Below are positions 447-60,455 of a DNA stretch of 64,000 bases, piece after piece (the first letter of the stretch is position 1; the number at the start of each line of letters is the position of its first letter). This stretch comes from Herpetosiphon sp. NSE202 (GTDB lineage Bacteria; Chloroflexota; Chloroflexia; Chloroflexales; Herpetosiphonaceae). A program made the translations under genes and the position numbers. Under the pieces are notes generated by a model that worked only from the letters and a program-made list of their open reading frames with translations, did no database searches and was not told the origin of the DNA. The stretch covers positions 130,110-194,109 of the forward strand of contig NZ_JBHUPY010000007.1 of assembly GCF_042688385.1 (NCBI RefSeq). The letters are read 5' to 3'.

Positions 447-1970
447 CTACTCGATACTAAAGACCATCTCAACATCGCCAATCCGAATTCGGTCGCCGGG
501 CCGCAGATGGTGCGGTTGATAGGCGGTCATCGGCACGCCGTTGATACTGGTGCCATTGATGCTGCCCAAATCAATTAATAAATGATGATCGCCCTGTTGC
601 TCGATCACAGCGTGGCGACGGGAAGCTACGCCACGATCATGCTCAGCCAAATCGATCTCAGGATGATGATTTTGGGCTGGATCGCGCCGCCCAATGCGAC
701 AAGGAAAATGGGTTAATGCTAATTCCCAAACCGCGCGCGGCGAGGTAATCACTAATTTTGGCACAGCGCGCTTGATTGCAGCGCCACAACCAGCACAAAA
801 TCGCGCATTCGGCTTATTCATGCGCCCACATTGATCGCAAATTGGGCCATTGGCCTGCGGTGGCGGCGACCACGCTGGAGTCTGGACTGGTGGAGCCCAT
901 GATGGCACTGGTTGCGGCACTGGCTGCGCCATCGGTTGCTGATAATTGGGCTGTTGCGGCGTACCCCAGGCTGGCGCTGGATTGGGATTCGGATTGCCCC
1001 ACGCTGGCGCAGGGTTTGGATTACCCCAGGCTGGCGCTGGATTGGGATTCGGATTGCCCCACGCAGGATCAGGATTGTTAAACACTGGCGCTGGCGTTGG
1101 CATCATCGTCGGATCATCAAGCTTATCGGGCACGATAACGCCGCGATCGACCGCCAACAAGGCTTGCTCAAACGAAGCCATCGTTTGAAAACGCTTATCG
1201 CGATCCATCGCCATCGCTTTGATAATCACCTGTTCCATCTCCGGCGTAACCGATTGATTATGCCGAATCAACGAGCCATCTCTGGGGGTTTGCAAGGGCA
1301 CAGGCGGCAAATTGGTGAGCATATGCAGCAAGGTCGCGCCCAAAGCATAAATATCCGCGCGGGCATCAGTTTGGCCCTTGCCATACTGCTCTGGTGGCGC
1401 ATAGCCTGCCGAACCCATCGCCACCGTATCTTTGCTTTTATTGGTTTTGTAGGTGCGCGCCACACCAAAATCGATCAGCTTAATAATGCCCTCAGGCGTA
1501 AGCATCACATTCGGCGGCTTCATATCGCGGAAGATAATTGGCGGATTTTGGGTGTGCAAATAATTCAGCACCCGCGCAATTTGAATTCCCCAATTAACTA
1601 CATCGCGTTGAAAAAATGGCGCATTCGTTTCACGCTGCTTATCTTCAAGCGTTTTACCTTGCACAAACTCCATCACTAGCGTCGGGCGACCAGCCTGATC
1701 GAAAGAATCGATCACTTTGGGCAAGTTTGGATGATCGAGCGTTTGCAACAATTGCGATTCTTGGTCGAAAAGCTTGCGATTTTCGGCAATCTCCTCGGGA
1801 GCAGCCTCAACTGGTGGGCGCATCTCTTTTAATGCCCAGGTCGAGCCATCGCTCATGCGTTCACAGCGATAGACCGCGCCCATGCCGCCGCGCCCGATGA
1901 GGCCGAGAATCCGATATTGATCACGTTGTCCTTGAAGTATCGTGCCATCAGGCAGCAAATCAGCAAACAC
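447..1970 (-). CDS. Ser/Thr protein kinase with Pro-rich repeat linker, double zinc-ribbon and C-terminal FHA domain
   Basis: Kinase subdomains are visible (GRGGMGAVYRC, ALKEM, HRDMKPPNVML, DFGVAR, GSAGYAPPE). Four copies of NPNPAPAWG follow, then CDQCGRMNKPNARFCAGCGA, then an FHA-like C-terminus (CRIGRR...GSINGTSINGVPM). Confidence 0.85.
   Translation of the reverse strand: MFADLLPDGTILQGQRDQYRILGLIGRGGMGAVYRCERMSDGSTWALKEMRPPVEAAPEEIAENRKLFDQESQLLQTLDHPNLPKVIDSFDQAGRPTLVMEFVQGKTLEDKQRETNAPFFQRDVVNWGIQIARVLNYLHTQNPPIIFRDMKPPNVMLTPEGIIKLIDFGVARTYKTNKSKDTVAMGSAGYAPPEQYGKGQTDARADIYALGATLLHMLTNLPPVPLQTPRDGSLIRHNQSVTPEMEQVIIKAMAMDRDKRFQTMASFEQALLAVDRGVIVPDKLDDPTMMPTPAPVFNNPDPAWGNPNPNPAPAWGNPNPAPAWGNPNPNPAPAWGTPQQPNYQQPMAQPVPQPVPSWAPPVQTPAWSPPPQANGPICDQCGRMNKPNARFCAGCGAAIKRAVPKLVITSPRAVWELALTHFPCRIGRRDPAQNHHPEIDLAEHDRGVASRRHAVIEQQGDHHLLIDLGSINGTSINGVPMTAYQPHHLRPGDRIRIGDVEMVFSIE
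961..1086. repeat. 60-bp period direct repeat (2 copies, 42/42 identical core) inside the kinase gene
   Basis: accccaggctggcgctggattgggattcggattgccccacgc occurs twice (about 961-1002 and 1021-1062). On the minus strand it encodes the PAWGNPNP(NP)APAWG repeats. Confidence 0.8.
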
Positions 1971-2232
1971 AGTTTCTCCCGCCGCTACATGATTGCGTAG
2001 CTTGTATTATCAACGATTGATCCGTCAAAAGTCAAAGGGTGGTAGCAACCATTAATCAAGAATTAACCATTAAATTGCCCAAAAGCATGCAAGAAATCAG
2101 TTTAAATTGCACCTATATCTAAGTAAAGGCTTATGCTCAGCCATTCTAGAATAAAACTTGACTTCCAGCATTGCCCCAAGCCACTCCAACTATACCATGC
2201 TCTTTCGCTCGTTAGCTTTCTGAGGAGTTTTG

Positions 2233-4056
2233 ATGACGGACTCTTTACTACTTATCTCGATTGGCCCAGTTCAAGATTTCATTGCAAGTGCCCGCCGCAC
2301 CCGCGACCTCTGGTTTGGTTCATGGCTGCTTAGCGAACTGGCCAAAGCGGCGGCGAAAAGCATTTATGAACACGAAGGCGATTTAATCTTTCCTTATCCA
2401 GCAACGCCAAAAACTGACCTTGCAGCAAACAGTACATTCAACGTCCCTAACAAAATTCTCGCCAAAATTAAAGACGATCCCAAAGCCCAAGCAGTTTTAG
2501 CCCGCGAGGCCTTAATCGCTCGATTGAATGAGATTCGCGAGGGAGCATTTGCCAAGGTCAATGGCGAAATTGAGCGAGAGCGAGCGATTGACCAAATCAA
2601 TTCCTTAGTTGAATTCAATTGGGTTGCATTACCCTTAGCAAGCGATGATACCTATCGTGCAACCCGCCAGCAGCTTGAGCACCTGATGGCAGCCCGCAAA
2701 AATACCCGTAATTTTGGCAAGGTAACGTGGGGTACGAACGCGCCAAAATCCTCAATTGATGGCGAACGGGAATCGGTGATTGATGAGAGTTTGTATCCAT
2801 TACCTAATGAGAAAACCAGAAATCCTACAGCATACGAAGACAAAGTTAGAAGTCTATATCAGAAATTCGGCATCAACGTTGGTGAGCGTTTATCAGGCGT
2901 TGATATTCTCAAGCGTCATGGGCAAAAAGGCAAAGATTCAAGATTTCCAAGCACCTCACATATGGCTGCAATTCCAATGTTCAACTTTCTAAATAAGTAT
3001 GATGAGCTAAATGCCAATATTAGTCTTATTGATGAGTGGAATAGATATATTAATTTTTTCAATAAAAATCCCACTCTGATAAAATATATTAATAATGAAA
3101 TAACCCCAAATCCTCAACCAATTTTCGGCGATAAGGATGGTTCATTATTATTTGCCGAACGATTCACCGATACATTAGAAGGTGATGATTTATCTGATGC
3201 TCGAAATGCACTTGAAGCATTCTATAACGCTTTAGGTGTTAAAAAACCTCCTATTCCCTACTATGCCATTTTGCATGCTGATGGCGATGCTATGGGTAGC
3301 GTGATTAATTTCCAATCGGATCTATTTAAACACCAAGCTATTTCCAAACAATTAACGCTGTTTGCAGGAGAAGTCAAATCAATCGTTGAAACGGAATATC
3401 AAGGAGCATTAGTTTATTCGGGCGGGGATGACGTTTTAGCATTTTTACCGTTACATACTGCATTGGAATGTGCCGATGCGTTGGCTAAAAAGTTTCAGAT
3501 TCTGTTAAGCGATTTCAAAAATAAAGAAGATCGTTCACCCACACTCTCGGTTGGCATTGCGATTGTTCACCACTTGGAGCCATTATCCGATGCCTTAGAG
3601 TTGGCACGCGCTGCCGAGAAAAAAGCCAAAGCTGTAGCAGGCAAAAATGCGCTGGCCATCAACCTCAGCAAACGTGGCGGCGCAGATCGAATTATCGTTG
3701 GCTCATGGATTGAAAGCACATATTCATTTTACAATCGACTTAAAAAATTAATTGAATGGCATCAAAACGATCAAATTCCCCTTGGCTTTGCTTTTGAACT
3801 GCATGATTTATCCATCCGACTAAAAGATTTACCTGCCGCAATTTTTCGCGCCGAAGCCAAACGAATTATCGAGCGCAAGCATACCAGCAACGGGATCAAA
3901 GTTGACGGTGATATTGCTCAAGCATTACTAGCCATGATTAATGATTTGGTTCCAGAAACGCAGACCGAAGCACACACGATGATCCACCAATTTGCTGATG
4001 AAGTGATTATTGCGGAATTTATTGCTCAAGCCAACAAACTGACTACAGGTCAATAA
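2233..4056 (+). CDS. cas10: Cas10/Cmr2 (type III-B large subunit), HD-less variant with intact cyclase palm motifs
   Basis: N-terminal ISIGPVQDFIASARRTRDLWFGSWLLS (Cmr2 signature), first palm YYAILHADGDAMG, second palm VYSGGDDVLAFLP (GGDD). No HD motif at the N-terminus. RBS GAGGAG 5 nt before ATG 2233 (the track start 2230 is a TTG). Confidence 0.85.
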   Translation: MTDSLLLISIGPVQDFIASARRTRDLWFGSWLLSELAKAAAKSIYEHEGDLIFPYPATPKTDLAANSTFNVPNKILAKIKDDPKAQAVLAREALIARLNEIREGAFAKVNGEIERERAIDQINSLVEFNWVALPLASDDTYRATRQQLEHLMAARKNTRNFGKVTWGTNAPKSSIDGERESVIDESLYPLPNEKTRNPTAYEDKVRSLYQKFGINVGERLSGVDILKRHGQKGKDSRFPSTSHMAAIPMFNFLNKYDELNANISLIDEWNRYINFFNKNPTLIKYINNEITPNPQPIFGDKDGSLLFAERFTDTLEGDDLSDARNALEAFYNALGVKKPPIPYYAILHADGDAMGSVINFQSDLFKHQAISKQLTLFAGEVKSIVETEYQGALVYSGGDDVLAFLPLHTALECADALAKKFQILLSDFKNKEDRSPTLSVGIAIVHHLEPLSDALELARAAEKKAKAVAGKNALAINLSKRGGADRIIVGSWIESTYSFYNRLKKLIEWHQNDQIPLGFAFELHDLSIRLKDLPAAIFRAEAKRIIERKHTSNGIKVDGDIAQALLAMINDLVPETQTEAHTMIHQFADEVIIAEFIAQANKLTTGQ

Positions 4057-4089
4057 TAGCAACTCAATAGGCTTTCAAGGAGTTAATTG

Positions 4090-5445
4090 ATGTCGCGAAA
4101 TAAACGTCGTGGTTCATCCACAAGAAACCAAGAATCAGAGCCACCAAAACCCAACACTGGTCAATGGCTGATCGAGCCACGTGACCCATTAATCGTTCGT
4201 GATGGTCGACCATTTAATAACACGCCTGGAGCCAAAGCCTATACTCAATCATTTCCGCCACCATCAGTTTTAGCGGGGGTTGTTCGAACACAAACTGCCT
4301 ACGCAACAAATATGCGGCTTACCCTTGATGATGGTCAACCTAATCAACCTAAGCTTGATCTGCTTAAACAAATAAAAATTTATGGGCCATTGCTATTCAA
4401 ATTGCCCAATCCAAATAAAGAAAAAGATGAGCCTGAATTCCTATGCCCTGCGCCTGCTGATGCATTGTTATTTGAGCTTGAAGCAAAACCATCCGATACT
4501 CAAGCAGCAGAATCGACGACATCCGCAGTTTGGCTCCGCCAATTAGTGCCAATTCAGCCTCCTGCTAGGTTTAGTAGCGATTTCAATGAACTTGGCTTGG
4601 TTGGTTTAGTCGAGGCTGATGCGCGTAAGCCAGCCAAAGAGCAACCGCAATTTTGGTATTGGGAACATTTTCTGCAATGGTTGCACGATCCAGCAGGATT
4701 AATCAATCAAACACACGGTTCTTCAGAACTAAAAACGGCTGATTTGGGCATTAAAGGCTTGCCAATCGATCAACGCACTCATACCCAAATTGATCCTGAG
4801 CGCCAGAGCGCCGAAGATGGCCGCTTATTTCAAACTCGTGGGCTGAGCTTTACCCAAGCTAAAGATGACCAACTCGCCGAAGCTCAGCGTTTAGCGCTAT
4901 TTGTCAAAGCCGACTACAAGCAATCTAATCTTGCAGTCCCAGCAATGAAGCTAGCGCCACTTGGCGGTGAACGTCGTTTGGCTCATTGGCATAGTGTTCC
5001 AACAATCAGTTCTTCCCCGTTCGATCAAGCAACCATTGATGCAATTGCGACAAAAATTGGGGAAACAGGAGCATGCCGCCTGATTCTGCTCACGCCATGC
5101 ATGTTTGAAAAAGGCTATCGCCCAACGTGGCTATGCCGCGATGTTGATGGTGTGCAGCCAACACTTGAGGCAATTGCGATCAAGCGCGCTCAAGTTATTT
5201 CAGGCTGGGATTTAGCAATTCGCAAGGCCAAACATACTCGCCGGCTAGCTCCCGCTGGCACTGTCTTGTTCCTCACATTCGCTGAAAAGGAAAATTCGGC
5301 GGCAATAGAAGCATGGGTTCGTAAGCTTTGGATGCAGTGCATCAGCGATGAGGAGCAAGATCGCCGTGATGGCTTTGGCTTGGCCGTATTTGGAACTTGG
5401 GATGGCGAATTTGCTGAAATCAAGGGAGTATCAAATGAATCGTAA
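4090..5445 (+). CDS. cmr3: Cmr3 (type III-B RAMP)
   Basis: LIEPRDPLIVRDGRPF N-terminal Cmr3 signature; C-terminal G-rich loop GFGLAVFGTWDG; RBS AAGGAG 7 nt upstream. Position after cas10. Confidence 0.75.
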   Translation: MSRNKRRGSSTRNQESEPPKPNTGQWLIEPRDPLIVRDGRPFNNTPGAKAYTQSFPPPSVLAGVVRTQTAYATNMRLTLDDGQPNQPKLDLLKQIKIYGPLLFKLPNPNKEKDEPEFLCPAPADALLFELEAKPSDTQAAESTTSAVWLRQLVPIQPPARFSSDFNELGLVGLVEADARKPAKEQPQFWYWEHFLQWLHDPAGLINQTHGSSELKTADLGIKGLPIDQRTHTQIDPERQSAEDGRLFQTRGLSFTQAKDDQLAEAQRLALFVKADYKQSNLAVPAMKLAPLGGERRLAHWHSVPTISSSPFDQATIDAIATKIGETGACRLILLTPCMFEKGYRPTWLCRDVDGVQPTLEAIAIKRAQVISGWDLAIRKAKHTRRLAPAGTVLFLTFAEKENSAAIEAWVRKLWMQCISDEEQDRRDGFGLAVFGTWDGEFAEIKGVSNES

Positions 5446-6880
5446 ACCAACTATTTCTGCACCAGATCTGGAAAATTATCAATTACCCAATCAATTTACC
5501 ATTGGCGAACACACCTATATCACCGAAACCCGCACCTATAAGCTGATCACCCCATTGTTTGGTGGTGGCGTTGAAGCTGGAGTGAATGACCCAATCACCC
5601 CAATTCGCGCCAGTGGCATTCGCGGCCAATTGCGCTTTTGGTGGCGAGCTATTCGCGGCGGTGGCTATAGTTCAATTGAGAAAATGAGAGAAGAAGAATC
5701 GAAAATTTGGGGTAGTGCTAGCACGAGTAGTGATTCAGAAAAAAACCAACAACTTTTTAGATCTGTGCAAATTAATGTTACTGAGGTTATTCATATTGAA
5801 GAGCAGGGCGTTCCAATGGTTATTAAACCGTATAAGGTCGAAGAAAAAACAAATGAACCTAATAAATTTATTACCAAACCTAATAAACAAAATGTAGTTC
5901 CTCTCTATATTGCTTTTCCACTCCAACCAACTTCAGAGGAAGCACAACAAATAGGAAAAGAAAACAGGCATGACCAAATTAAATACCTTACCAACAACCT
6001 CAAATTTACTTTAGAGATCACGTATCCCGAAAGTTTTAAACTTGAAATTCAAGCTGCACTATGGGCATGGGAGACATTTGGTGGGGTTGGTGGTCGTACC
6101 CGGCGTGGATTTGGTTCAATTAGAAGAACGGATGATCTAACATACCCCGATACAATGAAAGATTTCAAACCATGGCTTGATACAAATTTTAAAAAGTATA
6201 GTTTACTAAAACACCTACATAGATTTCCCCAGCTAGAGATTCACAATTCTCTAAGATTTATGATTTTTTATAAAACAATAAAATCAGGATTATTTGGAAT
6301 GTGGAGGAATTTAATAGAAAACTTTCGAGATTTTCGTCAAGCAAAAAATGATGATGGTAGAAGTAGTTGGCCTGAACCAAATCAAATCCGTAGAATTACA
6401 AAACAACATCTTAAGCATCATAATCCCGATAATGTTCAAGCAGGTCAGCAGCATAAGATAATCAAGGCATTTCCTCGTGCTCAGTTTGGGTTACCAATCA
6501 TTTTTCAATTTAAAGATAATAGATATGGATCTGATAGAAAAGATTTAGATCCTCGTCCTACAACTCTTGGATTGGTAAATCCTAACGATTCAAAAAAAGA
6601 GAGTGAGCGTTTAGCTAGCCCACTTATCTTAAAAACCTTCCAATGTACAAATGGAGATAGCATAGGGTTAGCATTTATTTTATCAGGAACCGAGTTATCT
6701 TCAAACATGGAGTTATCACTGAAGGCTAATCCCAGCAACCCTATAGATCCAAAGCCAGAAGATCTTAGGTTTCTATTAAGAGATAATGAAATGCTTGATA
6801 TAAATTCAATATCTGTAGAAGGAAATATCCTTGAAGCATTTTTAGCCTATCTTGAGGGGAAAATGCCGAAAGAAAAATAA
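5435..6880 (+). CDS. cmr1: Cmr1 (type III-B RAMP)
   Basis: ITPLFGGG, IRASGIRGQLRFWWRA and the G-rich loop WETFGGVGGRTRRGFGSI. RBS AAGGGAG before ATG 5435; overlaps the cmr3 stop by 11 nt. The C-terminal two thirds is AT-rich, see findings. Confidence 0.75.
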   Translation: MNRKPTISAPDLENYQLPNQFTIGEHTYITETRTYKLITPLFGGGVEAGVNDPITPIRASGIRGQLRFWWRAIRGGGYSSIEKMREEESKIWGSASTSSDSEKNQQLFRSVQINVTEVIHIEEQGVPMVIKPYKVEEKTNEPNKFITKPNKQNVVPLYIAFPLQPTSEEAQQIGKENRHDQIKYLTNNLKFTLEITYPESFKLEIQAALWAWETFGGVGGRTRRGFGSIRRTDDLTYPDTMKDFKPWLDTNFKKYSLLKHLHRFPQLEIHNSLRFMIFYKTIKSGLFGMWRNLIENFRDFRQAKNDDGRSSWPEPNQIRRITKQHLKHHNPDNVQAGQQHKIIKAFPRAQFGLPIIFQFKDNRYGSDRKDLDPRPTTLGLVNPNDSKKESERLASPLILKTFQCTNGDSIGLAFILSGTELSSNMELSLKANPSNPIDPKPEDLRFLLRDNEMLDINSISVEGNILEAFLAYLEGKMPKEK

Positions 6881-6922
6881 TTACGATTCTTCAAACATTC
6901 TTATTTAATTGGAGCATAAACC

Positions 6923-7819
6923 ATGAATCTCACCAAACTCGTTTTTGTCCATGCCCTTTCACCACTGCATGCTGGCACAGGCCAAGGCGCTGGGGTCATC
7001 GATTTGCCAATTGCCCGCGAAAAAGCCACCAATTTGCCCTATTTGCCAGGTTCATCGCTCAAAGGCCCGTTGCGTGATCGGGCAATGAACGCCAATGAAT
7101 GCGGAGTGCCCCTCAATAAAACGCCTGAAGAAATTTTCGGACGGTCTGAAACTAATAATTTGACCATGGGGGTGGTGCAATTCTCCGATTTACACTTGCT
7201 TTGTTTACCTGTGCGCAGTTTGTTTGGCACATTTGCCTGGGTTAGCTCGACTTATATTCTCAATCGTTTTGCCCGAAGTTTAGCCGATACTCATCAAGCT
7301 CAGCTGAGGGAGTTAGCCCCTATCCAGCTTGATGAAGCAACTCAATGCCTTGTAACCCAAAATTCAAGTCTCACTGCAAATACCAAAGTGTATCTTGAAG
7401 ATCTTGATTTTGTGGCCAAAAACCAGGAGGGGATTCATCAATGGGGAACATTCATCGCTCAGAATATTTTTGACTCAACCACAGAAGCTGAAAAATATTG
7501 GCATGATCACTTTATTCAACGTTTATGTATTGTTCACGATAATGTTTTGAGCTTTTTACTCAACACTGCAACCGAAATAACCGCTCGTATCAGCCTTGAT
7601 GACGATAAAAAAACAGTTAAAAAAGGCGCTTTGTGGTACGAAGAAGCCTTGCCAGCCGAATCAATTTTGACTGGCTTGATGTTGATTGCGCCACCAAAAG
7701 CAAACCAAACATATTTAGATGCAATGGCAAACGATCTTACAAATCTTTGTGAAAAACCAATTCAGCTTGGTGGCAAAGCAACCGTTGGGCGCGGAATTTG
7801 TCGCGTGATTGTGAAATAG
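6923..7819 (+). CDS. cmr4: Cmr4 (type III-B backbone RAMP, Cas7 family)
   Basis: LSPLHAGTGQGAGVIDLPIAREKATNLPYLPGSSLKGPLR (Cas7 glycine-rich/thumb signature); C-terminal G-rich loop GGKATVGRGICRV; RBS GGAG. Confidence 0.8.
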   Translation: MNLTKLVFVHALSPLHAGTGQGAGVIDLPIAREKATNLPYLPGSSLKGPLRDRAMNANECGVPLNKTPEEIFGRSETNNLTMGVVQFSDLHLLCLPVRSLFGTFAWVSSTYILNRFARSLADTHQAQLRELAPIQLDEATQCLVTQNSSLTANTKVYLEDLDFVAKNQEGIHQWGTFIAQNIFDSTTEAEKYWHDHFIQRLCIVHDNVLSFLLNTATEITARISLDDDKKTVKKGALWYEEALPAESILTGLMLIAPPKANQTYLDAMANDLTNLCEKPIQLGGKATVGRGICRVIVK

Positions 7820-7829
7820 GAGCAGTAGC

Positions 7830-8255
7830 ATGAGTAATTCAGTTTTTCAAACCCGCGATCAGAAATTTGCATCAGTAATTTATCAACAAATCCAAGACAT
7901 TAAGCAACAGTCTGTGGCAAACCAAAAACGCTATGGTGTAATAGCACATAAATTACCTATATTAATTAGAACTGCTGGGCTTGCTCAAGCATTAGTATTT
8001 ATTAGTTCAAGGAGTAAGAAAAAAGAGCTTGGCAAAGATGATGAATTTAGTTTATTCCTAACTCATCTTACAAAAACAATAAATATAGATACATCAGATA
8101 TTGTTGAATATGCTATTAAAGTAGATCTCTCAAAGTATATGTACATAACACAACAGATACTTGATGCACTGTTATGGTATAAACGCTTTGCTCAAAGCGT
8201 GCTTGGCATTGAGCCAACCGATCAACTTGATGACGAGCAGGGAGATAAAGAATGA
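7830..8255 (+). CDS. cmr5: Cmr5 (type III-B small subunit, Cas11 family)
   Basis: 141-aa alpha-helical protein between cmr4 and cmr6. RBS AGGAG; stop overlaps the cmr6 start (ATGA). Assignment is mainly positional. Confidence 0.6.
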   Translation: MSNSVFQTRDQKFASVIYQQIQDIKQQSVANQKRYGVIAHKLPILIRTAGLAQALVFISSRSKKKELGKDDEFSLFLTHLTKTINIDTSDIVEYAIKVDLSKYMYITQQILDALLWYKRFAQSVLGIEPTDQLDDEQGDKE

Positions 8256-9112
8256 ATAGTCGACGTGATCATTTAAATAATATCAAAGTGGATAACATAG
8301 CACATGCAGGTTTATGGCTTGATCGTTATTTATATGAACAAAAAAATGACGATGAAAATTCTAAAACGAAGCATTTTGCCGATGTTGCCAATATCGCCAA
8401 TCAAATGGATCAAACAGGAATCTATGAAGGTTTTTTTAAGCGCTGGGTGAACACATTAAAGGAAATTCCCGCTATTTGCTTGCTAAGAGCTGAAGTAAAA
8501 GGCCGAATGGTCGTGGGTCTCGGGACTGAAAGTGTGCTCGAAAACTCGATTACTTTGCAGCGCACCTATGGCATGCCCTACATCCCAGGTAGCGCCTTGA
8601 AGGGCTTGGCATCGAGCTTCGCCCACCAACGCCTCGGCCAAGGAGCTGCCAATGCAGATACACCCAACGATTGGGCGAAGGGTGGCAAATTTCATCGCGA
8701 ATTATTTGGCTCAACCGAGCTAAGTGGCTGTATCAGCTTTTATGATGCCTTGTATATTCCTAAGACGGCCAAAGCTGGAGGCCCATTACATCCCGATGTG
8801 ATTACTGTGCATCATCCTGAGTATTATCAAGGCAAGAAACAAGCTCCTGCCAAGGGTGATCAAGCGCAAACTATGCCACCAGCCGATTGGGATAGCCCAA
8901 CCATTATTCCATTTCTGAGCGCGACTGGTCACTATTTGGTAGCACTCAGCGGAGTAGAAGGTTGGTGTAATGCCGCCCGAAGCTTGCTCGCCAATGGCCT
9001 GACGCATATGGGCATCGGCGCAAAAACCTCCAGTGGTTATGGCCGGATGGAGCTTGATGCTAACTGTATGACAGAAGAGCAAATTAAATCACTACTTGAA
9101 AGCTTAGGTTAA
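8252..9112 (+). CDS. cmr6: Cmr6 (type III-B RAMP)
   Basis: MPYIPGSALKGLASSFAH (RAMP motif) and the C-terminal G-rich loop GIGAKTSSGYGRMEL. Confidence 0.75.
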   Translation: MNSRRDHLNNIKVDNIAHAGLWLDRYLYEQKNDDENSKTKHFADVANIANQMDQTGIYEGFFKRWVNTLKEIPAICLLRAEVKGRMVVGLGTESVLENSITLQRTYGMPYIPGSALKGLASSFAHQRLGQGAANADTPNDWAKGGKFHRELFGSTELSGCISFYDALYIPKTAKAGGPLHPDVITVHHPEYYQGKKQAPAKGDQAQTMPPADWDSPTIIPFLSATGHYLVALSGVEGWCNAARSLLANGLTHMGIGAKTSSGYGRMELDANCMTEEQIKSLLESLG

Positions 9113-9128
9113 TATAAAGGAGCTTGCT

Positions 9129-10436
9129 ATGCGCAAATTAATTTCATTTCTAGGAGCAAATCCACCAAGTAACAACTATAAACGAACGATTTATAAATAT
9201 GGGCAATTAGAACATGAGTCACTCTATGCGACTGCTGCCATGGCAAAAATTTTCAATTCTGATCAAGTTTATGTATTTGTAACACCTCAAGCTAAATTTA
9301 ATAATTTCGATTTATTAACCCAACATATGAATGAGGCAAATCTGACCGAACCCATAGCTTGTGACATTCCTATTGGCGAGAATAATACTGAAATCTGGCA
9401 AATTTTTAATGCTATTACAAATACGCTCCAAGATGGTGACACAATTATTTTTGATATTACAAATGGTTTGCGTTCATTACCAATTTTAGGATTTATCGCG
9501 TGTGCTTATATTACCTCTGTCCGTAAAGTAACAATTGAGCATTTAGTCTATGGAGCATTTGAAGTAAAGAAAGATATTATGCTTTCTGACGGAGATCCTG
9601 CAACTGAATCGCCTGTTTTCGATCTGACTCCATTTTTAACCTTGCTCGACTGGACAACCGCCACCAACACCTTTATTCAAACAGGCCGCGCCGAACAGCT
9701 TACTAAACTTGCTGAAACGTTTAAAAACGATGCAGTTGAAGGTTTTGCCAAACAAGTACACAAACTTTCACAAGAATTATTAACCACCCGCCCAGTTGGC
9801 GTAATTCAAGCAGCCTCAGGCTTTGAGCAAGCTTTAGCCAAGGTTGAGGCCGCCGTGCAACAAAACCCAGCCATGCAGCCGTATCAACAGTTGTTAGAAC
9901 GAATTAAAGATGAATATAGCCCATTTGCGATTGCTACTGATCCGCTGGCAGATTTGACTGAGGCCTATCGCCAAGCCCGATCTGATCAACAAGGCTTTTT
10001 GCGGATTCAAATAAAAATGATTCGCCAATATTTGGATAAAGGTCTACCAATTCAGGCAATGACTTTAGCTCGCGAGTGGTTAGTTTCGCTAGGAGTTTAT
10101 CATCAAGGAAGCCACGATATTTTCAATTATAAAGATCGAGAGGTTATTGCTCGAATGCTCAACCAAAATTCATGGAGCGAAGATCCACGTCCTACAGAAA
10201 CCCTTCAACCACATCTAAAGCAAATTAGGGAAGTTTGGTCAGGGATTACCCTCGACCCAAATGATAAAACCGAAGCCACGAATCATGTTCGAAACGATAT
10301 TGCCCACTGTGGAATGACTCCAGTTTTTATCAAGAATGGTCGAAAGCAACTAAATGTGCGCACAGCTGCTGATATTATTGACCAAACAATCAAAATCTGT
10401 GATCGTTTAGAAAGTTTATTAGCAACGATCGTTTGA
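9129..10436 (+). CDS. csx1: Csx1-family CARF-HEPN ancillary ribonuclease
   Basis: N-terminal CARF-like segment with a DxTHG-type motif (FDITNGLRSLP). C-terminal HEPN R-X4-H motif (HVRNDIAHCG). RBS AAAGGAG. Sits directly downstream of cmr6. Confidence 0.7.
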   Translation: MRKLISFLGANPPSNNYKRTIYKYGQLEHESLYATAAMAKIFNSDQVYVFVTPQAKFNNFDLLTQHMNEANLTEPIACDIPIGENNTEIWQIFNAITNTLQDGDTIIFDITNGLRSLPILGFIACAYITSVRKVTIEHLVYGAFEVKKDIMLSDGDPATESPVFDLTPFLTLLDWTTATNTFIQTGRAEQLTKLAETFKNDAVEGFAKQVHKLSQELLTTRPVGVIQAASGFEQALAKVEAAVQQNPAMQPYQQLLERIKDEYSPFAIATDPLADLTEAYRQARSDQQGFLRIQIKMIRQYLDKGLPIQAMTLAREWLVSLGVYHQGSHDIFNYKDREVIARMLNQNSWSEDPRPTETLQPHLKQIREVWSGITLDPNDKTEATNHVRNDIAHCGMTPVFIKNGRKQLNVRTAADIIDQTIKICDRLESLLATIV

Positions 10437-10446
10437 AGGAAAGTCT

Positions 10447-10836
10447 ATGCTCCTGATTAACTTTGCCCATCCATTGACTGATGCGCAGTTTAGCCAAGTC
10501 GTGGCCATCGTTGAAGAAACGCCACAACTATGTTTTGTCGATACCCAAGTTAGCCGAATGCGGCCTTTGGCTGAGGTTGCTTATGATTTAGTTGAAAGCG
10601 TTGGCTTGAAAACCGCCGATTGGCAAACTGTACCGATTATTATCAATCCCCCAGGCTTGGCTCCATTGGCCTTGGCAGTTATTGCCGAGTTGCACGGGCG
10701 TTCAGGCTATTTTCTGCCAATTATCAATATGCGGCCTGTTCCCAAAACAACTCCAACCATCTTTGAGGTAGCAGAAATTTGCAATTTGGATGCAATTCGC
10801 CAAATTGCACGTACACGGCGCATTCCCAAGCTGTAG
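10447..10836 (+). CDS. Small cas-operon-associated protein of unknown function (candidate ring-nuclease or Csx16-like accessory)
   Basis: 129-aa ORF starting 11 nt after the csx1 stop, with RBS GAAGGA. Predicted beta-alpha-beta start (MLLINFAHPLTDAQF) and a conserved-looking segment ELHGRSGYFLPIIN. No confident family assignment from sequence alone. Confidence 0.45.
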   Translation: MLLINFAHPLTDAQFSQVVAIVEETPQLCFVDTQVSRMRPLAEVAYDLVESVGLKTADWQTVPIIINPPGLAPLALAVIAELHGRSGYFLPIINMRPVPKTTPTIFEVAEICNLDAIRQIARTRRIPKL

Positions 10837-10884
10837 TCCAAGCACAGGGCATAGATCAAACTAGTCTATGCCCTGTGCTTGGAC
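10836..10884. terminator. Perfect 20-bp-stem hairpin between convergent cas operon and methyltransferase gene (candidate bidirectional terminator)
   Basis: GTCCAAGCACAGGGCATAGA, loop tcaaactag, then TCTATGCCCTGTGCTTGGAC. It lies exactly between the two convergent stop codons. No strong U-tract on either side. Confidence 0.55.
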
Positions 10885-11643
10885 TTAGGCAAAGCGCCCA
10901 ACATAGACCGTCGTGGTGTATAAAAAGGCGATTTTGCCGTCAACTTGATGCGCCTGCCACGCATCAATCAGGCCTTGACGTAGGGCTTGGTAACTTGGTT
11001 GATCGGGCGTTGGTGTGTACGACGAGGAAAATGCGCGGCCAAGCAGGCCTGCTTGGTCAAAATATTGGGCATTTTGGGCGCTGTAGCAAGCTGGTTGTTG
11101 GCCAAAAAAGTCGCTAATCAGTTGCGGGTCGATATTGGTATGTTTGACGCTCGAATAATCGGTGCCAAATTGGTGTAATAGGGCTTCGTATTGGCGCAAA
11201 AATGGCGTAGCATCAAGCGAACGTTGGTTCCAAATCAAGGCAACCCAGCCATCAGGCCGCAAAATGCGCTGCCATTCTTGGCGCGTAGCGTTTAGCTCAA
11301 ACCAGTGGAAGGCTTGGGCAGCCGTAATCCAATTAACGCTCTGATCGGCTAAACCAGTGGCTTCAGCGCTGCCATCAACCACTTGAAAATTGGGATAGTG
11401 CTCGGCTAGTTGCAAACTAGCTTCACGCATTGGCGCGTTTGGTTCGATGGCATAAACCGTTGCGCCATGCTCCAATAATTGCTGGCTCCAAATGCCCGTG
11501 CCAGCCCCAATATCGGCCACGATCGAGTTTGAGCCAAAGCCATGCTGCGTTTGCAATGGCCCAAAAATTTCGCGTGGGTAGGTTGGGCGAAATTGCACAT
11601 AATCGGCAACTCGATTGCTAAACCGTTGACGGTTATCACTCAT
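10885..11643 (-). CDS. Class I SAM-dependent methyltransferase
   Basis: Motif I VADIGAGTGIWS followed by an acidic residue at the end of beta2 (YAIEPN). Confidence 0.8.
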   Translation of the reverse strand: MSDNRQRFSNRVADYVQFRPTYPREIFGPLQTQHGFGSNSIVADIGAGTGIWSQQLLEHGATVYAIEPNAPMREASLQLAEHYPNFQVVDGSAEATGLADQSVNWITAAQAFHWFELNATRQEWQRILRPDGWVALIWNQRSLDATPFLRQYEALLHQFGTDYSSVKHTNIDPQLISDFFGQQPACYSAQNAQYFDQAGLLGRAFSSSYTPTPDQPSYQALRQGLIDAWQAHQVDGKIAFLYTTTVYVGRFA

Positions 11644-33508: not shown

Positions 33509-33581
33509 TCCCTGATAGCTCAGTTGGTAGAGCAATTGACTGTTAATCAATGGGTCCTAGGTTCGAGTCCTAGTCAGGGAG
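33509..33581 (+). tRNA. tRNA-Asn (GTT)
   Basis: Cloverleaf is readable: acceptor tccctga/tcaggga, D-arm gctcagttggtagagc, anticodon loop ctGTTaa, T-arm ggttcgagtcc. Followed by CCA. Confidence 0.85.
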
Positions 33582-33604: not shown

Positions 33605-33677
33605 TCCCTGATAGCTCAGTTGGTAGAGCGGTTGACTGTTAATCAGCATGTCCTAGGTTCGAGTCCTAGTCAGGGAG
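33605..33677 (+). tRNA. tRNA-Asn (GTT), second tandem copy
   Basis: Near-identical to the first copy (differs in the anticodon stem and variable region). Anticodon loop ctGTTaa, followed by CCA. Confidence 0.85.
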
Positions 33678-34963: not shown

Positions 34964-36259
34964 CTATTCAGAGCGGCCTACAAATGGCAAATACAATTTC
35001 CAACTTAGCGGAGTTATAGTCGGCGATGTGATGGTGACGGTTGTTGTTGGAGTGCTGGTTGGCGTGGTGCTGGTTGGCGTGGTTGATGGTGGAGTGCTGG
35101 TTGGCGTAGTAGTGGTTGCCGTCACGCTCGGTGGAGTGGTTGCAGTTGGCGTGATGGTTAAGGTCGGCGTAATCGTGACAATTGGTGTGATGCTTACCGT
35201 TGGTGTTACGGTTGGGGTAATCGTTGCAGTTGGCGTAACCGTTGCGGTTGGAATGATGGTTGCCGTCGGCGTGACCGTTGCGGTTGGCGTAACCGTTGCA
35301 GTTGGAATAACGGTTGCCGTCGGTGTGATGGTTGCGGTTGGCGTAACCGTTGCCGTTGGAATGATGGTTGCGGTAGGCGTGACGGTTGCCGTTGGGGTAA
35401 TCGTTGCGGTTGGTGTGATGGTTGCTGTCGGGATGATCGTTGCGATTGGCGTGACGGTTGCTGTTGGCGCAGGAATGTCAGCAAACAAGATCATGTATAG
35501 GGCACTATTTGTCCCTATATTGCGCGCATCACCGGACAGAAAATTGAAGTCGGTTTGCCCATTGACATTGCGATAATAACCATAGTTTGGCGCACCTAAC
35601 GGTACCGAGCCAGCAGCAAAGGCTGGAGCACCTGCACCGCCACGAATTGCTGTAGTCAGGTTCGTCGTATCAACAAGGCCAGCACCGCTATCGCCACGAA
35701 TATTGATCGTAACACCATGGTCGCTGAGGCCAGTCAGAGTCAACGGGTTCGTCAACGGAATTGAAATATCGTAAAGTCCTCCCGCTACGAGGTTACCGCC
35801 GCCAAGATCAAAGCTGAGTAAACCACCAACAGGGTTTGTAAACACCTGCGTATTGGTAGCATTGAAACTATCCCAAAATTGAATTCGAACTTGGATGTTG
35901 GTATAGGTGGTTGCGGAGAGTGAAACCAGCCCAAACTGGAGTGCCGTAATATCGCTTGCTGTTGCCAGATTGAACGGTTGTCCCATATAGGTATGGGGTG
36001 CGTTTGCAAAATTAATAAAATCATCAGCCCCAGTGATTGTATCGAATACTGGGGTGATTACCTGCGGCAAACGAGCATTCGTCAGTAACGTGCCACTAGG
36101 CTTGAGTTGCCCCATTGATGTGTCGCGCGCAACTTCAGGCAAGCCCTGTGCTGGACGTGTAGCGCTGGTCGTCGTTGGCGAAACTGCCAAGCCGGCAAGC
36201 AGCGCTAACAAACAACCAACAGCACTCAAAATTCCCAACTGGCGATGGATTCGATTCAT
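34964..36259 (-). CDS. Secreted protein with N-terminal globular domain and C-terminal (TPTATI/V)n Pro/Thr repeat region
   Basis: Signal peptide MNRIHRQLGILSAVGCLLALLAGLAV. About 16 hexapeptide repeats TPTATVTPTATI..., then a Thr/Pro/Ser-rich tail. The + strand ORF 34929-35576 is an antisense artefact of the repeat. Confidence 0.55.
   Translation of the reverse strand: MNRIHRQLGILSAVGCLLALLAGLAVSPTTTSATRPAQGLPEVARDTSMGQLKPSGTLLTNARLPQVITPVFDTITGADDFINFANAPHTYMGQPFNLATASDITALQFGLVSLSATTYTNIQVRIQFWDSFNATNTQVFTNPVGGLLSFDLGGGNLVAGGLYDISIPLTNPLTLTGLSDHGVTINIRGDSGAGLVDTTNLTTAIRGGAGAPAFAAGSVPLGAPNYGYYRNVNGQTDFNFLSGDARNIGTNSALYMILFADIPAPTATVTPIATIIPTATITPTATITPTATVTPTATIIPTATVTPTATITPTATVIPTATVTPTATVTPTATIIPTATVTPTATITPTVTPTVSITPIVTITPTLTITPTATTPPSVTATTTTPTSTPPSTTPTSTTPTSTPTTTVTITSPTITPLSWKLYLPFVGRSE
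35040..35480. repeat. 18-bp period tandem repeat array (coding for PT repeats)
   Basis: Units like ggttgccgtcggcgtgac / ggttgcggttggcgtaac repeated about 20 times with point variation. Confidence 0.8.
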
Positions 36260-60053: not shown

Positions 60054-60126
60054 TGCCACCTTCCGGGCTCGAACCGGAGACCCTACAATTTTCAGTCGTA
60101 TGCTCTACCAACTGAGCTAAAGTGGC
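60054..60126 (-). tRNA. tRNA-Phe (GAA)
   Basis: Reverse complement gives gccacttt agctcagttggtagagc ... ctGAAaa ... ggttcgagcc ... ggtggca + CCA. Confidence 0.8.
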
Positions 60127-60131
60127 ATTGG

Positions 60132-60204
60132 TGGGTGATGAGGGACTCGAACCCCCGACCTACTCGGTGTAAACGAGACGCTCTACCAACTGAGCTAATC
60201 ACCC
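60132..60204 (-). tRNA. tRNA-Val (TAC)
   Basis: Reverse complement gives gggtgattagctcagttggtagagcg...ttTACac...ggttcgagtccctcatcaccca + CCA. Confidence 0.75.
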
Positions 60205-60224
60205 ATATGTATGAAGAACGAATT

Positions 60225-60309
60225 GGTGCCCAGAGTGGGACTTGAACCCACACGAGATTGCTCCCACTACCCCCTCAAAGTAGCGCGTCTGCCAATTCCG
60301 CCACCTGGG
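60225..60309 (-). tRNA. tRNA-Leu (GAG), long variable arm
   Basis: Reverse complement gives gcccaggtggcggaattggcagacgcgctactttGAGggggtag + variable arm + ggttcaagtcccactctgggca + CCA. 85 nt. Confidence 0.75.
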
Positions 60310-60455
60310 CAGGTGGTTTGCAACATTTGGTTTGTGTTGCATTTCGTTATTCAATTGTTTAGTGCCGTGGTATTATAATCAGCTTTGGCATTCTTGTCAA
60401 ATTTTATTTTCCTGCGCCAAAAGGCCGTTGTTTCGCCCGCAAAACTAGCTCAATT

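Follow-up and report, generated by a model that had tools for sequence, protein, structure and literature searches.

The last gene of a type III-B CRISPR operon in Herpetosiphon sp. NSE202 encodes a stand-alone Csx15. The gene lies in a 64,000-nt stretch of contig NZ_JBHUPY010000007.1 (here called the window), where it follows cmr2-3-1-4-5-6 and a csx1-like gene, and we consider it probable (roughly 80%) that its product binds cyclic tetra-adenylate (cA4) and dampens Csx1. Its open reading frame (ORF), which encodes 129 amino acids (aa), runs from ATG to TAG exactly as drawn in the initial annotation, which had also correctly noted a ribosome-binding site (RBS) of its own, GAAGGA, and a start 11 nt past the csx1 stop codon. 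That annotation had favored a ring nuclease of the Crn2/DUF1874 type, with a Csx15/16/20-like accessory protein of unknown function as the fallback. It was right about the functional class and wrong about the family; the fallback is what the gene proved to be, and the statement that such a protein has no known function is out of date, as Csx15 has been characterized (PMC13148439). The features at the gene are as follows.

10447..10836 (+), csx15: stand-alone Csx15, a CARF/SAVED-superfamily protein predicted from its homologs to bind cA4 as a slow ring nuclease and/or sponge
10435..10440 (+), Shine-Dalgarno-like GAAGGA: putative RBS read from the sequence, sharing bases with the csx1 stop codon and spaced 6 nt from the start codon of csx15
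10835..10885 (no strand assigned), hairpin: stem of 22 perfectly paired bp closed by a 7-nt loop, where csx15 and a methyltransferase-like gene converge

The NCBIfam profile NF040560 ("CRISPR-associated protein Csx15") matched the protein over its full length, with residues 2 to 125 aligned to positions 1 to 125 of 125 (142.4 bits against a cutoff of 35; E = 8.3e-42). It was the sole NCBIfam family matched at E ≤ 1; Crn1 (NF040951) and the other NCBIfam CRISPR accessory families gave no match at that threshold. An indexed database search recovered 1,089 homologs at E ≤ 1e-3, an exhaustive search recovered 955 clusters at 50% identity, and with 17 invariant columns these place the coding status of csx15 well above chance. 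Among other Herpetosiphon genomes, the match in H. geysericola was 97% identical to the protein, that in H. llansteffanensis 96%, and that in H. aurantiacus 85%, and the orthologs in H. llansteffanensis and H. gulosus (88%) already carry the NCBI name Csx15. Homology to experimentally solved Csx15 proteins was also detectable. A single-sequence search matched PDB entry 9teu ("csx15") and the Csx15 domain of the CRISPR-associated Schlafen protein CbCash (9ylu), each at E = 1.1e-14, and a profile of 71 homologs matched 9teu at 4.6e-28, the 9ylu domain at 5.4e-27, and 9tet ("CRISPR-associated Csx15") at 8e-4. Entry 9teu is CliCsx15 of Chlorobaculum limnaeum, as judged from the residue numbering of the corresponding paper (H13, H90, and Y113, with a 7-residue tag offset). 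CliCsx15 was 32% identical to the 129-aa protein (BLASTP) and the CbCash domain 35% identical over 124 residues. The protein is an ordinary Csx15, a routine member of a curated and recently characterized family that standard annotation would name Csx15, and it opens no new question.

Two further similarities were set aside. A Pfam match to bCoV_NSP1 (E = 0.018) fell below the cutoff and was ignored. TALE repeat proteins matched the profile in the PDB search at E values of 7e-6 to 2e-3, and we treated these matches as spurious: they add up weak similarities between LLNFAHPLTEEQLAQVA, an N-terminal motif of Csx15, and the TALE repeat LCQAHGLTPEQVVAIAS, none of them significant by itself, and we regard the likeness as chance or compositional.

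All residues with validated functions in characterized Csx15 proteins, namely two histidines, an aromatic residue, and an arginine triad, have counterparts in the 129-aa protein. H8, in the motif-I loop between β1 and α1, aligns with H13 of CliCsx15, whose replacement by alanine abolished cA4 cleavage, and with H11 of the Pseudomonas fluorescens protein PfCsx15 (9tet), where the same replacement abolished binding and filament formation (PMC13148439). H83 aligns with Cli H90 and Pf H82; the Cli H90A variant lost oligomerization and nearly all activity (PMC13148439). F106 aligns with Cli Y113, Pf F106, and CbCash F275, which stacks on adenine, and R118, R122, and R125 have the same 4,3 spacing as the phosphate-contacting R116, R120, and R123 of PfCsx15. 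In the alignment of 71 homologs, in which conservation was counted, H8, H83, R118, and R125 were invariant (71/71) and R122 was kept in 70; the remaining columns of the 17 that are invariant are N5, P9, W59, Q60, N67, P69, G84, R85, G87, F89, R96, P97, and E107. The two segments that the initial annotation had read as DUF1874-like (N-terminal NFAHPLT and, later, ELHGRSGYF) are real motifs and the most conserved parts of the family, but they are Csx15 motifs rather than DUF1874 motifs.

An AlphaFold2 monomer model built on the 71-sequence alignment (mean predicted local distance difference test score, 94.8; predicted template modeling score, 0.85) has a CARF-like α/β fold with strands at residues 2 to 5, 27 to 30, 64 to 67, 92 to 97, and 106 to 112 and helices on the flanks. 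The five predicted strands form one sheet, the last two pairing as an extended β4-β5 hairpin. The model agrees with the published Csx15 crystal structures, in which a five-stranded sheet without one canonical CARF strand carries an extended β4-β5 hairpin (PMC13148439). Its nearest structural neighbors were SAVED and CARF proteins, with the following Z scores.

AcrIII-2 viral SAVED ring nuclease (9r8s): 8.7
SAVED-CHAT: 8.0
Cap5 SAVED: 7.1
CARF protein SSO1393: 6.9
Csa3: 6.5
CalpL (SAVED-Lon filament, 9eyi / 7qda): 6.2 / 5.6
Cad1: 5.8
Can2: 5.8
Card1: 5.7
Crn1 Sso2081: 4.9

AcrIII-2 is likewise the top structural match of the CliCsx15 crystal structure, with a similar Z score (PMC13148439).

Published work on the family suggests how the protein may act. 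Dimers of Csx15 are stacked head to tail, and the site shared by adjacent dimers is specific for cA4 (Chi et al. 2026, PMC13148439). CliCsx15 slowly hydrolyzes cA4 to A2-p/A-p without metal ions, and the orphan PfCsx15 only sequesters it (PMC13148439). In Escherichia coli, CliCsx15 neutralizes Csx1-dependent plasmid immunity, and its authors proposed that Csx15 removes low levels of cA4 that are produced aberrantly, reducing autoimmunity (PMC13148439). In the Herpetosiphon locus, Cmr bound to target RNA would switch on the Cas10 GGDD cyclase, and the resulting cA4 would activate the neighboring CARF-HEPN Csx1-like RNase. By analogy with its relatives, Csx15 would form a CARF-superfamily homodimer and bind cA4 in composite sites between dimers stacked head to tail, to which one dimer would contribute H8 of the β1-α1 loop and the next H83, F106, and R118/R122/R125. 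Sequestration, and probably also slow, metal-independent hydrolysis to linear A2-p/A-p, would then lower the cA4 pool, with the expected outcome that the threshold for Csx1 activation is raised, Csx1 is reset, and self-damage is limited.

A correct annotation is the main value of this assignment, in that the Herpetosiphon III-B locus would have a dedicated cA4 off-switch or buffer beside its Csx1-like RNase. With such a buffer in place, we predict a dampened, reversible cA4 signaling pathway rather than an abortive-infection pathway. The protein also adds one more CRISPR-linked Csx15 from the Chloroflexi clade that may be used to ask what separates slow-enzyme from sponge members.

Several observations weigh against cA4 binding and dampening of Csx1 as proposed here. 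Its proposed specificity for cA4, its filaments, and its action as a sponge or nuclease are inferred from characterized members that share only 32 to 35% identity with the protein. The motif-I Ser reported as conserved (Pf S9) is Ala7, at a position that varies in the clade (Ala in 48, Gly in 10, Ser in 9, and Thr in 4 of the 71 homologs). In CbCash, F241 stacks on adenine; the equivalent residue is Tyr in CliCsx15 but Leu71 here, and it is Leu in 62 of the 71. A Foldseek search against the PDB returned no significant match, from a library reaching to 2026-04-08 that returned no Csx15 entries. Finally, some members of the family are slow enzymes (CliCsx15) and others nonenzymatic sponges (PfCsx15); because both keep the two histidines, sequence does not decide between them.

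It is possible, though we think it the less probable case, that the protein is a pure sponge that sequesters cA4 in filaments as PfCsx15 does, without meaningful phosphodiesterase activity. PfCsx15 keeps the same His and Arg residues and is yet essentially inactive as a nuclease (PMC13148439, PMC12409355), turnover is very slow even in CliCsx15, and the motif-I Ser has been replaced by Ala here. However, its single-sequence match to CliCsx15, which is active and CRISPR-linked (E = 1.1e-14), is far stronger than that to PfCsx15 (E = 0.92), and the protein is encoded in a type III operon, as CliCsx15 is, and is no orphan. A pure sponge would in any case be a subcase of a Csx15 that binds cA4 and dampens Csx1 and not a different system.

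Csx15 domains can also act as activating sensors, as in CbCash (PMC13462974), and occur joined to Schlafen, UPF0158, Cas6, and NE0113-CARF domains as well as to unknown ones. Such a role would be compatible with an intact His pair, since 17 of the 23 N-terminal fusions keep both histidines. Nevertheless, we think it very unlikely that cA4-induced Csx15 filaments activate or scaffold a partner here (e.g., Csx1 or an unlinked effector), as the Csx15 domain of Cash activates its Schlafen nuclease: the protein stands alone with no effector domain, the neighboring Csx1-like protein has its own CARF sensor, and in vivo the effect of CliCsx15 on Csx1 immunity is to neutralize it, not to enhance it (PMC13148439). 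We considered the His pair as a marker separating stand-alone (enzymatic) from fused (sensor) Csx15 and rejected it, as 199 of 218 stand-alone proteins keep the pair and both classes mostly do; CbCash, with Gln at both positions, is an exception.

The substitutions at two ligand-proximal positions in this clade (A7 and L71) might instead point to another ligand, i.e., to a binder or nuclease for cyclic tri- or hexa-adenylate (cA3 or cA6) or some other nucleotide signal, and PfCsx15 at high protein concentration shows very limited activity on cA3 and cA6 (PMC12409355). All three characterized Csx15 modules are nonetheless specific for cA4 (PMC13148439, PMC13462974), and the neighboring effector resembles cA4-binding Csx1, which makes this reading improbable. 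The Crn2/DUF1874 (AcrIII-1-like) ring nuclease can be dismissed, as a short visual resemblance of two segments was all that spoke for it, the protein had no PF08960 match at E ≤ 1 and does not have the DUF1874 fold, and hhalign of the Csx15 profile against SIRV1 gp29 (confirmed by profile as a PF08960 member, E = 5.5e-29) gave a probability of 0.07% over one aligned column.

Upstream of csx1, the type III-B gene set is complete (2230..9112, +).

2230-4056 (+), cmr2 (cas10): NCBIfam Cmr2, E = 5.3e-65
4087-5445 (+), cmr3: NCBIfam Cmr3, E = 8.8e-28, 97.4 bits, just under the 100.4-bit cutoff
5348-6880 (+), cmr1: NCBIfam Cmr1, E = 2.1e-19
6923-7819 (+), cmr4: NCBIfam Cmr4, E = 1.3e-67
7830-8255 (+), cmr5: NCBIfam Cmr5, E = 7.2e-14
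8252-9112 (+), cmr6: NCBIfam Cmr6, E = 9.3e-36
9129..10436 (+), csx1-like CARF effector gene, 435 aa: TIGR02221/TM1812 family, with a DxTHG motif and a C-terminal HEPN-like R-x4-H motif (RNDIAH)

The Cmr2/Cas10 translation carries the GGDD cyclase motif (as SGGDDVLAF), the presumed source of cyclic oligoadenylate, and the csx1-like product is presumably the cA4-activated RNase that Csx15 dampens. The stop codon of the csx1-like gene is TGA at 10434-10436, and 10 nt separate it from csx15. A simple site scan found no terminator-like site and no promoter-like site on the + strand at this junction, and the two genes are therefore likely to be co-transcribed. The hairpin after csx15, which the initial annotation had called a terminator, is real by folding (RNA free energy, -48.2 kcal/mol; z = -8.38; 0 of 200 shuffles equally stable) and takes up the entire interval between the stop codons of csx15 and the methyltransferase-like gene that converges on it (10885..11643, -). 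Because it lacks a U-tract, a simple terminator scan that looks for T-runs did not list it. We regard it as a likely bidirectional transcript end.

No CRISPR array, cas6, cas1, or cas2 was found in the window, so the cassette must use CRISPR RNAs from elsewhere in the genome. With its ATG at 5348, the longest cmr1 ORF shares 98 nt with the 3′ end of cmr3, and the real cmr1 start is probably further downstream, because the Cmr1 profile match begins only at residue 65. The genes flanking the cassette are of the housekeeping type (a Ser/Thr kinase with an FHA domain, a methyltransferase, CoA-disulfide reductase, a Sir2-type deacylase, YifB, and an ABC transporter). Elsewhere in the window are two tandem tRNA genes (33509-33581 and 33605-33677) that share 93% identity, three further tRNA genes clustered on the minus strand (60054-60310), and a long imperfect tandem repeat array with 18/36/54-nt periods (35024-35510; about 15 copies of GTTGCGGTTGGCGTGACC-type units) that probably encodes a repetitive protein on one strand.

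Association of csx15 with type III loci and cA4-type CARF effectors extends beyond this genome. The gene was present in syntenic cmr-csx1 loci, on which the initial annotation had made its reading depend. Across 80 related genomic loci, 67 of the 71 upstream ORFs called were on the csx15 strand and 48 ended ≤30 nt from csx15. A scan of 52 such upstream neighbors identified TIGR02710 (18), TIGR02221 (6), TIGR02619 (5), Crn1 NF040951 (5), Csx14 (2), and NE0113 (2); the commonest families are CRISPR CARF or ring-nuclease families. Ten neighbors scanned singly comprised two 285-aa Herpetosiphon proteins with a clear Card1-type CARF domain, seven proteins of ~250 aa that were weakly CARF-like, mostly under curated cutoffs, and one with HEPN/DUF4145 matches instead. 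Genes downstream of csx15 in the related loci include CARF, Cas10, Cas6, and Cas1, and complete or near-complete cmr cassettes lay ≤10 kb away in about 20 of the 80 loci (tblastn with the Cmr proteins of the window). These results agree with a report that cA4 effectors and Crn1 both co-occur with Csx15 (PMC12409355). An anti-CRISPR role was also considered; phage and plasmid collections yielded no Csx15 relative by tblastn at E ≤ 1e-3.

Comparison with H. geysericola revealed a sharp homology junction at the csx15 RBS. A single contiguous block, 93.5% identical to that genome, begins within the csx1 stop codon at 10433 and extends to 16492 of the window; the cmr2-csx1 region (compared over 729-10079) aligns only in pieces, at 72 to 88%, with unalignable gaps. 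At the protein level, Csx15 is 97% identical between the two species, the adjacent CARF protein just 50%, and Cmr5 46%. The CARF gene beside csx15 also differs by locus: a TIGR02221 CARF-HEPN gene in the window and related locus L001, an additional 285-aa Card1-type gene in L002, and a 285-aa Card1-type gene alone in L003. Because of the junction at the RBS and the CARF gene differing between species, the alignments suggest cassette or effector exchange among Herpetosiphon species with csx15 as the fixed 3′ anchor. We think unlikely the fuller proposal that CARF effectors are swapped by recombination ending exactly at the csx15 RBS, that Csx15 serves as an effector-independent cA4 buffer, and that ligand handling in the clade (Ala7, Leu71) is possibly altered. 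If this were true, an anchored Csx15 would set the activation threshold of any CARF effector that the cassette happens to carry, and the Ala7/Leu71 Chloroflexi clade might differ from CliCsx15 as a pure sponge or in its specificity.

Among characterized systems, CliCsx15 (9teu; PMC13148439) comes from a type III-A locus in Chlorobi, whereas the csx15 described here belongs to a III-B (Cmr) locus in Chloroflexi; between the two proteins, the motif-I Ser becomes Ala7, Tyr becomes Leu71, and Tyr113 becomes Phe106. PfCsx15 shares the family, the fold, and the conserved His, His, and Arg triad, and it forms cA4-induced head-to-tail filaments, as predicted for the 129-aa protein. In contrast, it is an orphan without a CRISPR locus and a nonenzymatic sponge, and similarity to it is weak (E = 0.92 by single sequence and 8e-4 by profile, over 42 residues). 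The CbCash domain (9ylu; PMC13462974) binds cA4, and its F275 corresponds to F106, but it is an activating sensor fused to a Schlafen tRNase, both histidines are Gln, and cA4 contacts one dimer only.

Other Csx15 fusions in the family (P0142, P0131, P0128, P0152, P0235, P0126, P0127, and P0139) include Schlafen AlbA_2 (Cash type) and UPF0158 partners, a C-terminal Cas6 domain (P0152, 470 aa), an N-terminal NE0113-type CARF domain (P0235), and N-terminal regions without a Pfam match, one within a 558-aa protein. Three proteins (P0147, P0158, and P0241) carry two tandem Csx15 domains in a single polypeptide of 327 to 351 aa; the first copy has Phe and Ala for the two histidines, and the second keeps the motif-I His with Asn at the second position. 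This covalent pseudo-dimer arrangement is reminiscent of SAVED domains.

AcrIII-2/Crn5 (9r8s) is a SAVED pseudo-dimer in one chain, but it is a virus-encoded anti-CRISPR protein, 12% identical to the 129-aa protein with no detectable sequence homology. Crn1 (Sso2081) and Crn3/Csx3 gave no sequence-family match to the protein at E ≤ 1, and Csx15 differs from CARF ring nucleases in having one CARF strand fewer and a composite site between dimers (PMC13148439). Crn2/AcrIII-1 (DUF1874, PF08960) resembles Csx15 as a small cA4-degrading protein sometimes fused to or encoded beside Csx1, yet it is unrelated to the 129-aa protein in sequence and fold. The chemistry differs as well: Crn2 uses in-line attack by the 2′-OH and yields cyclic phosphates, while CliCsx15 gives hydrolytic products with 3′-phosphates (PMC13148439).
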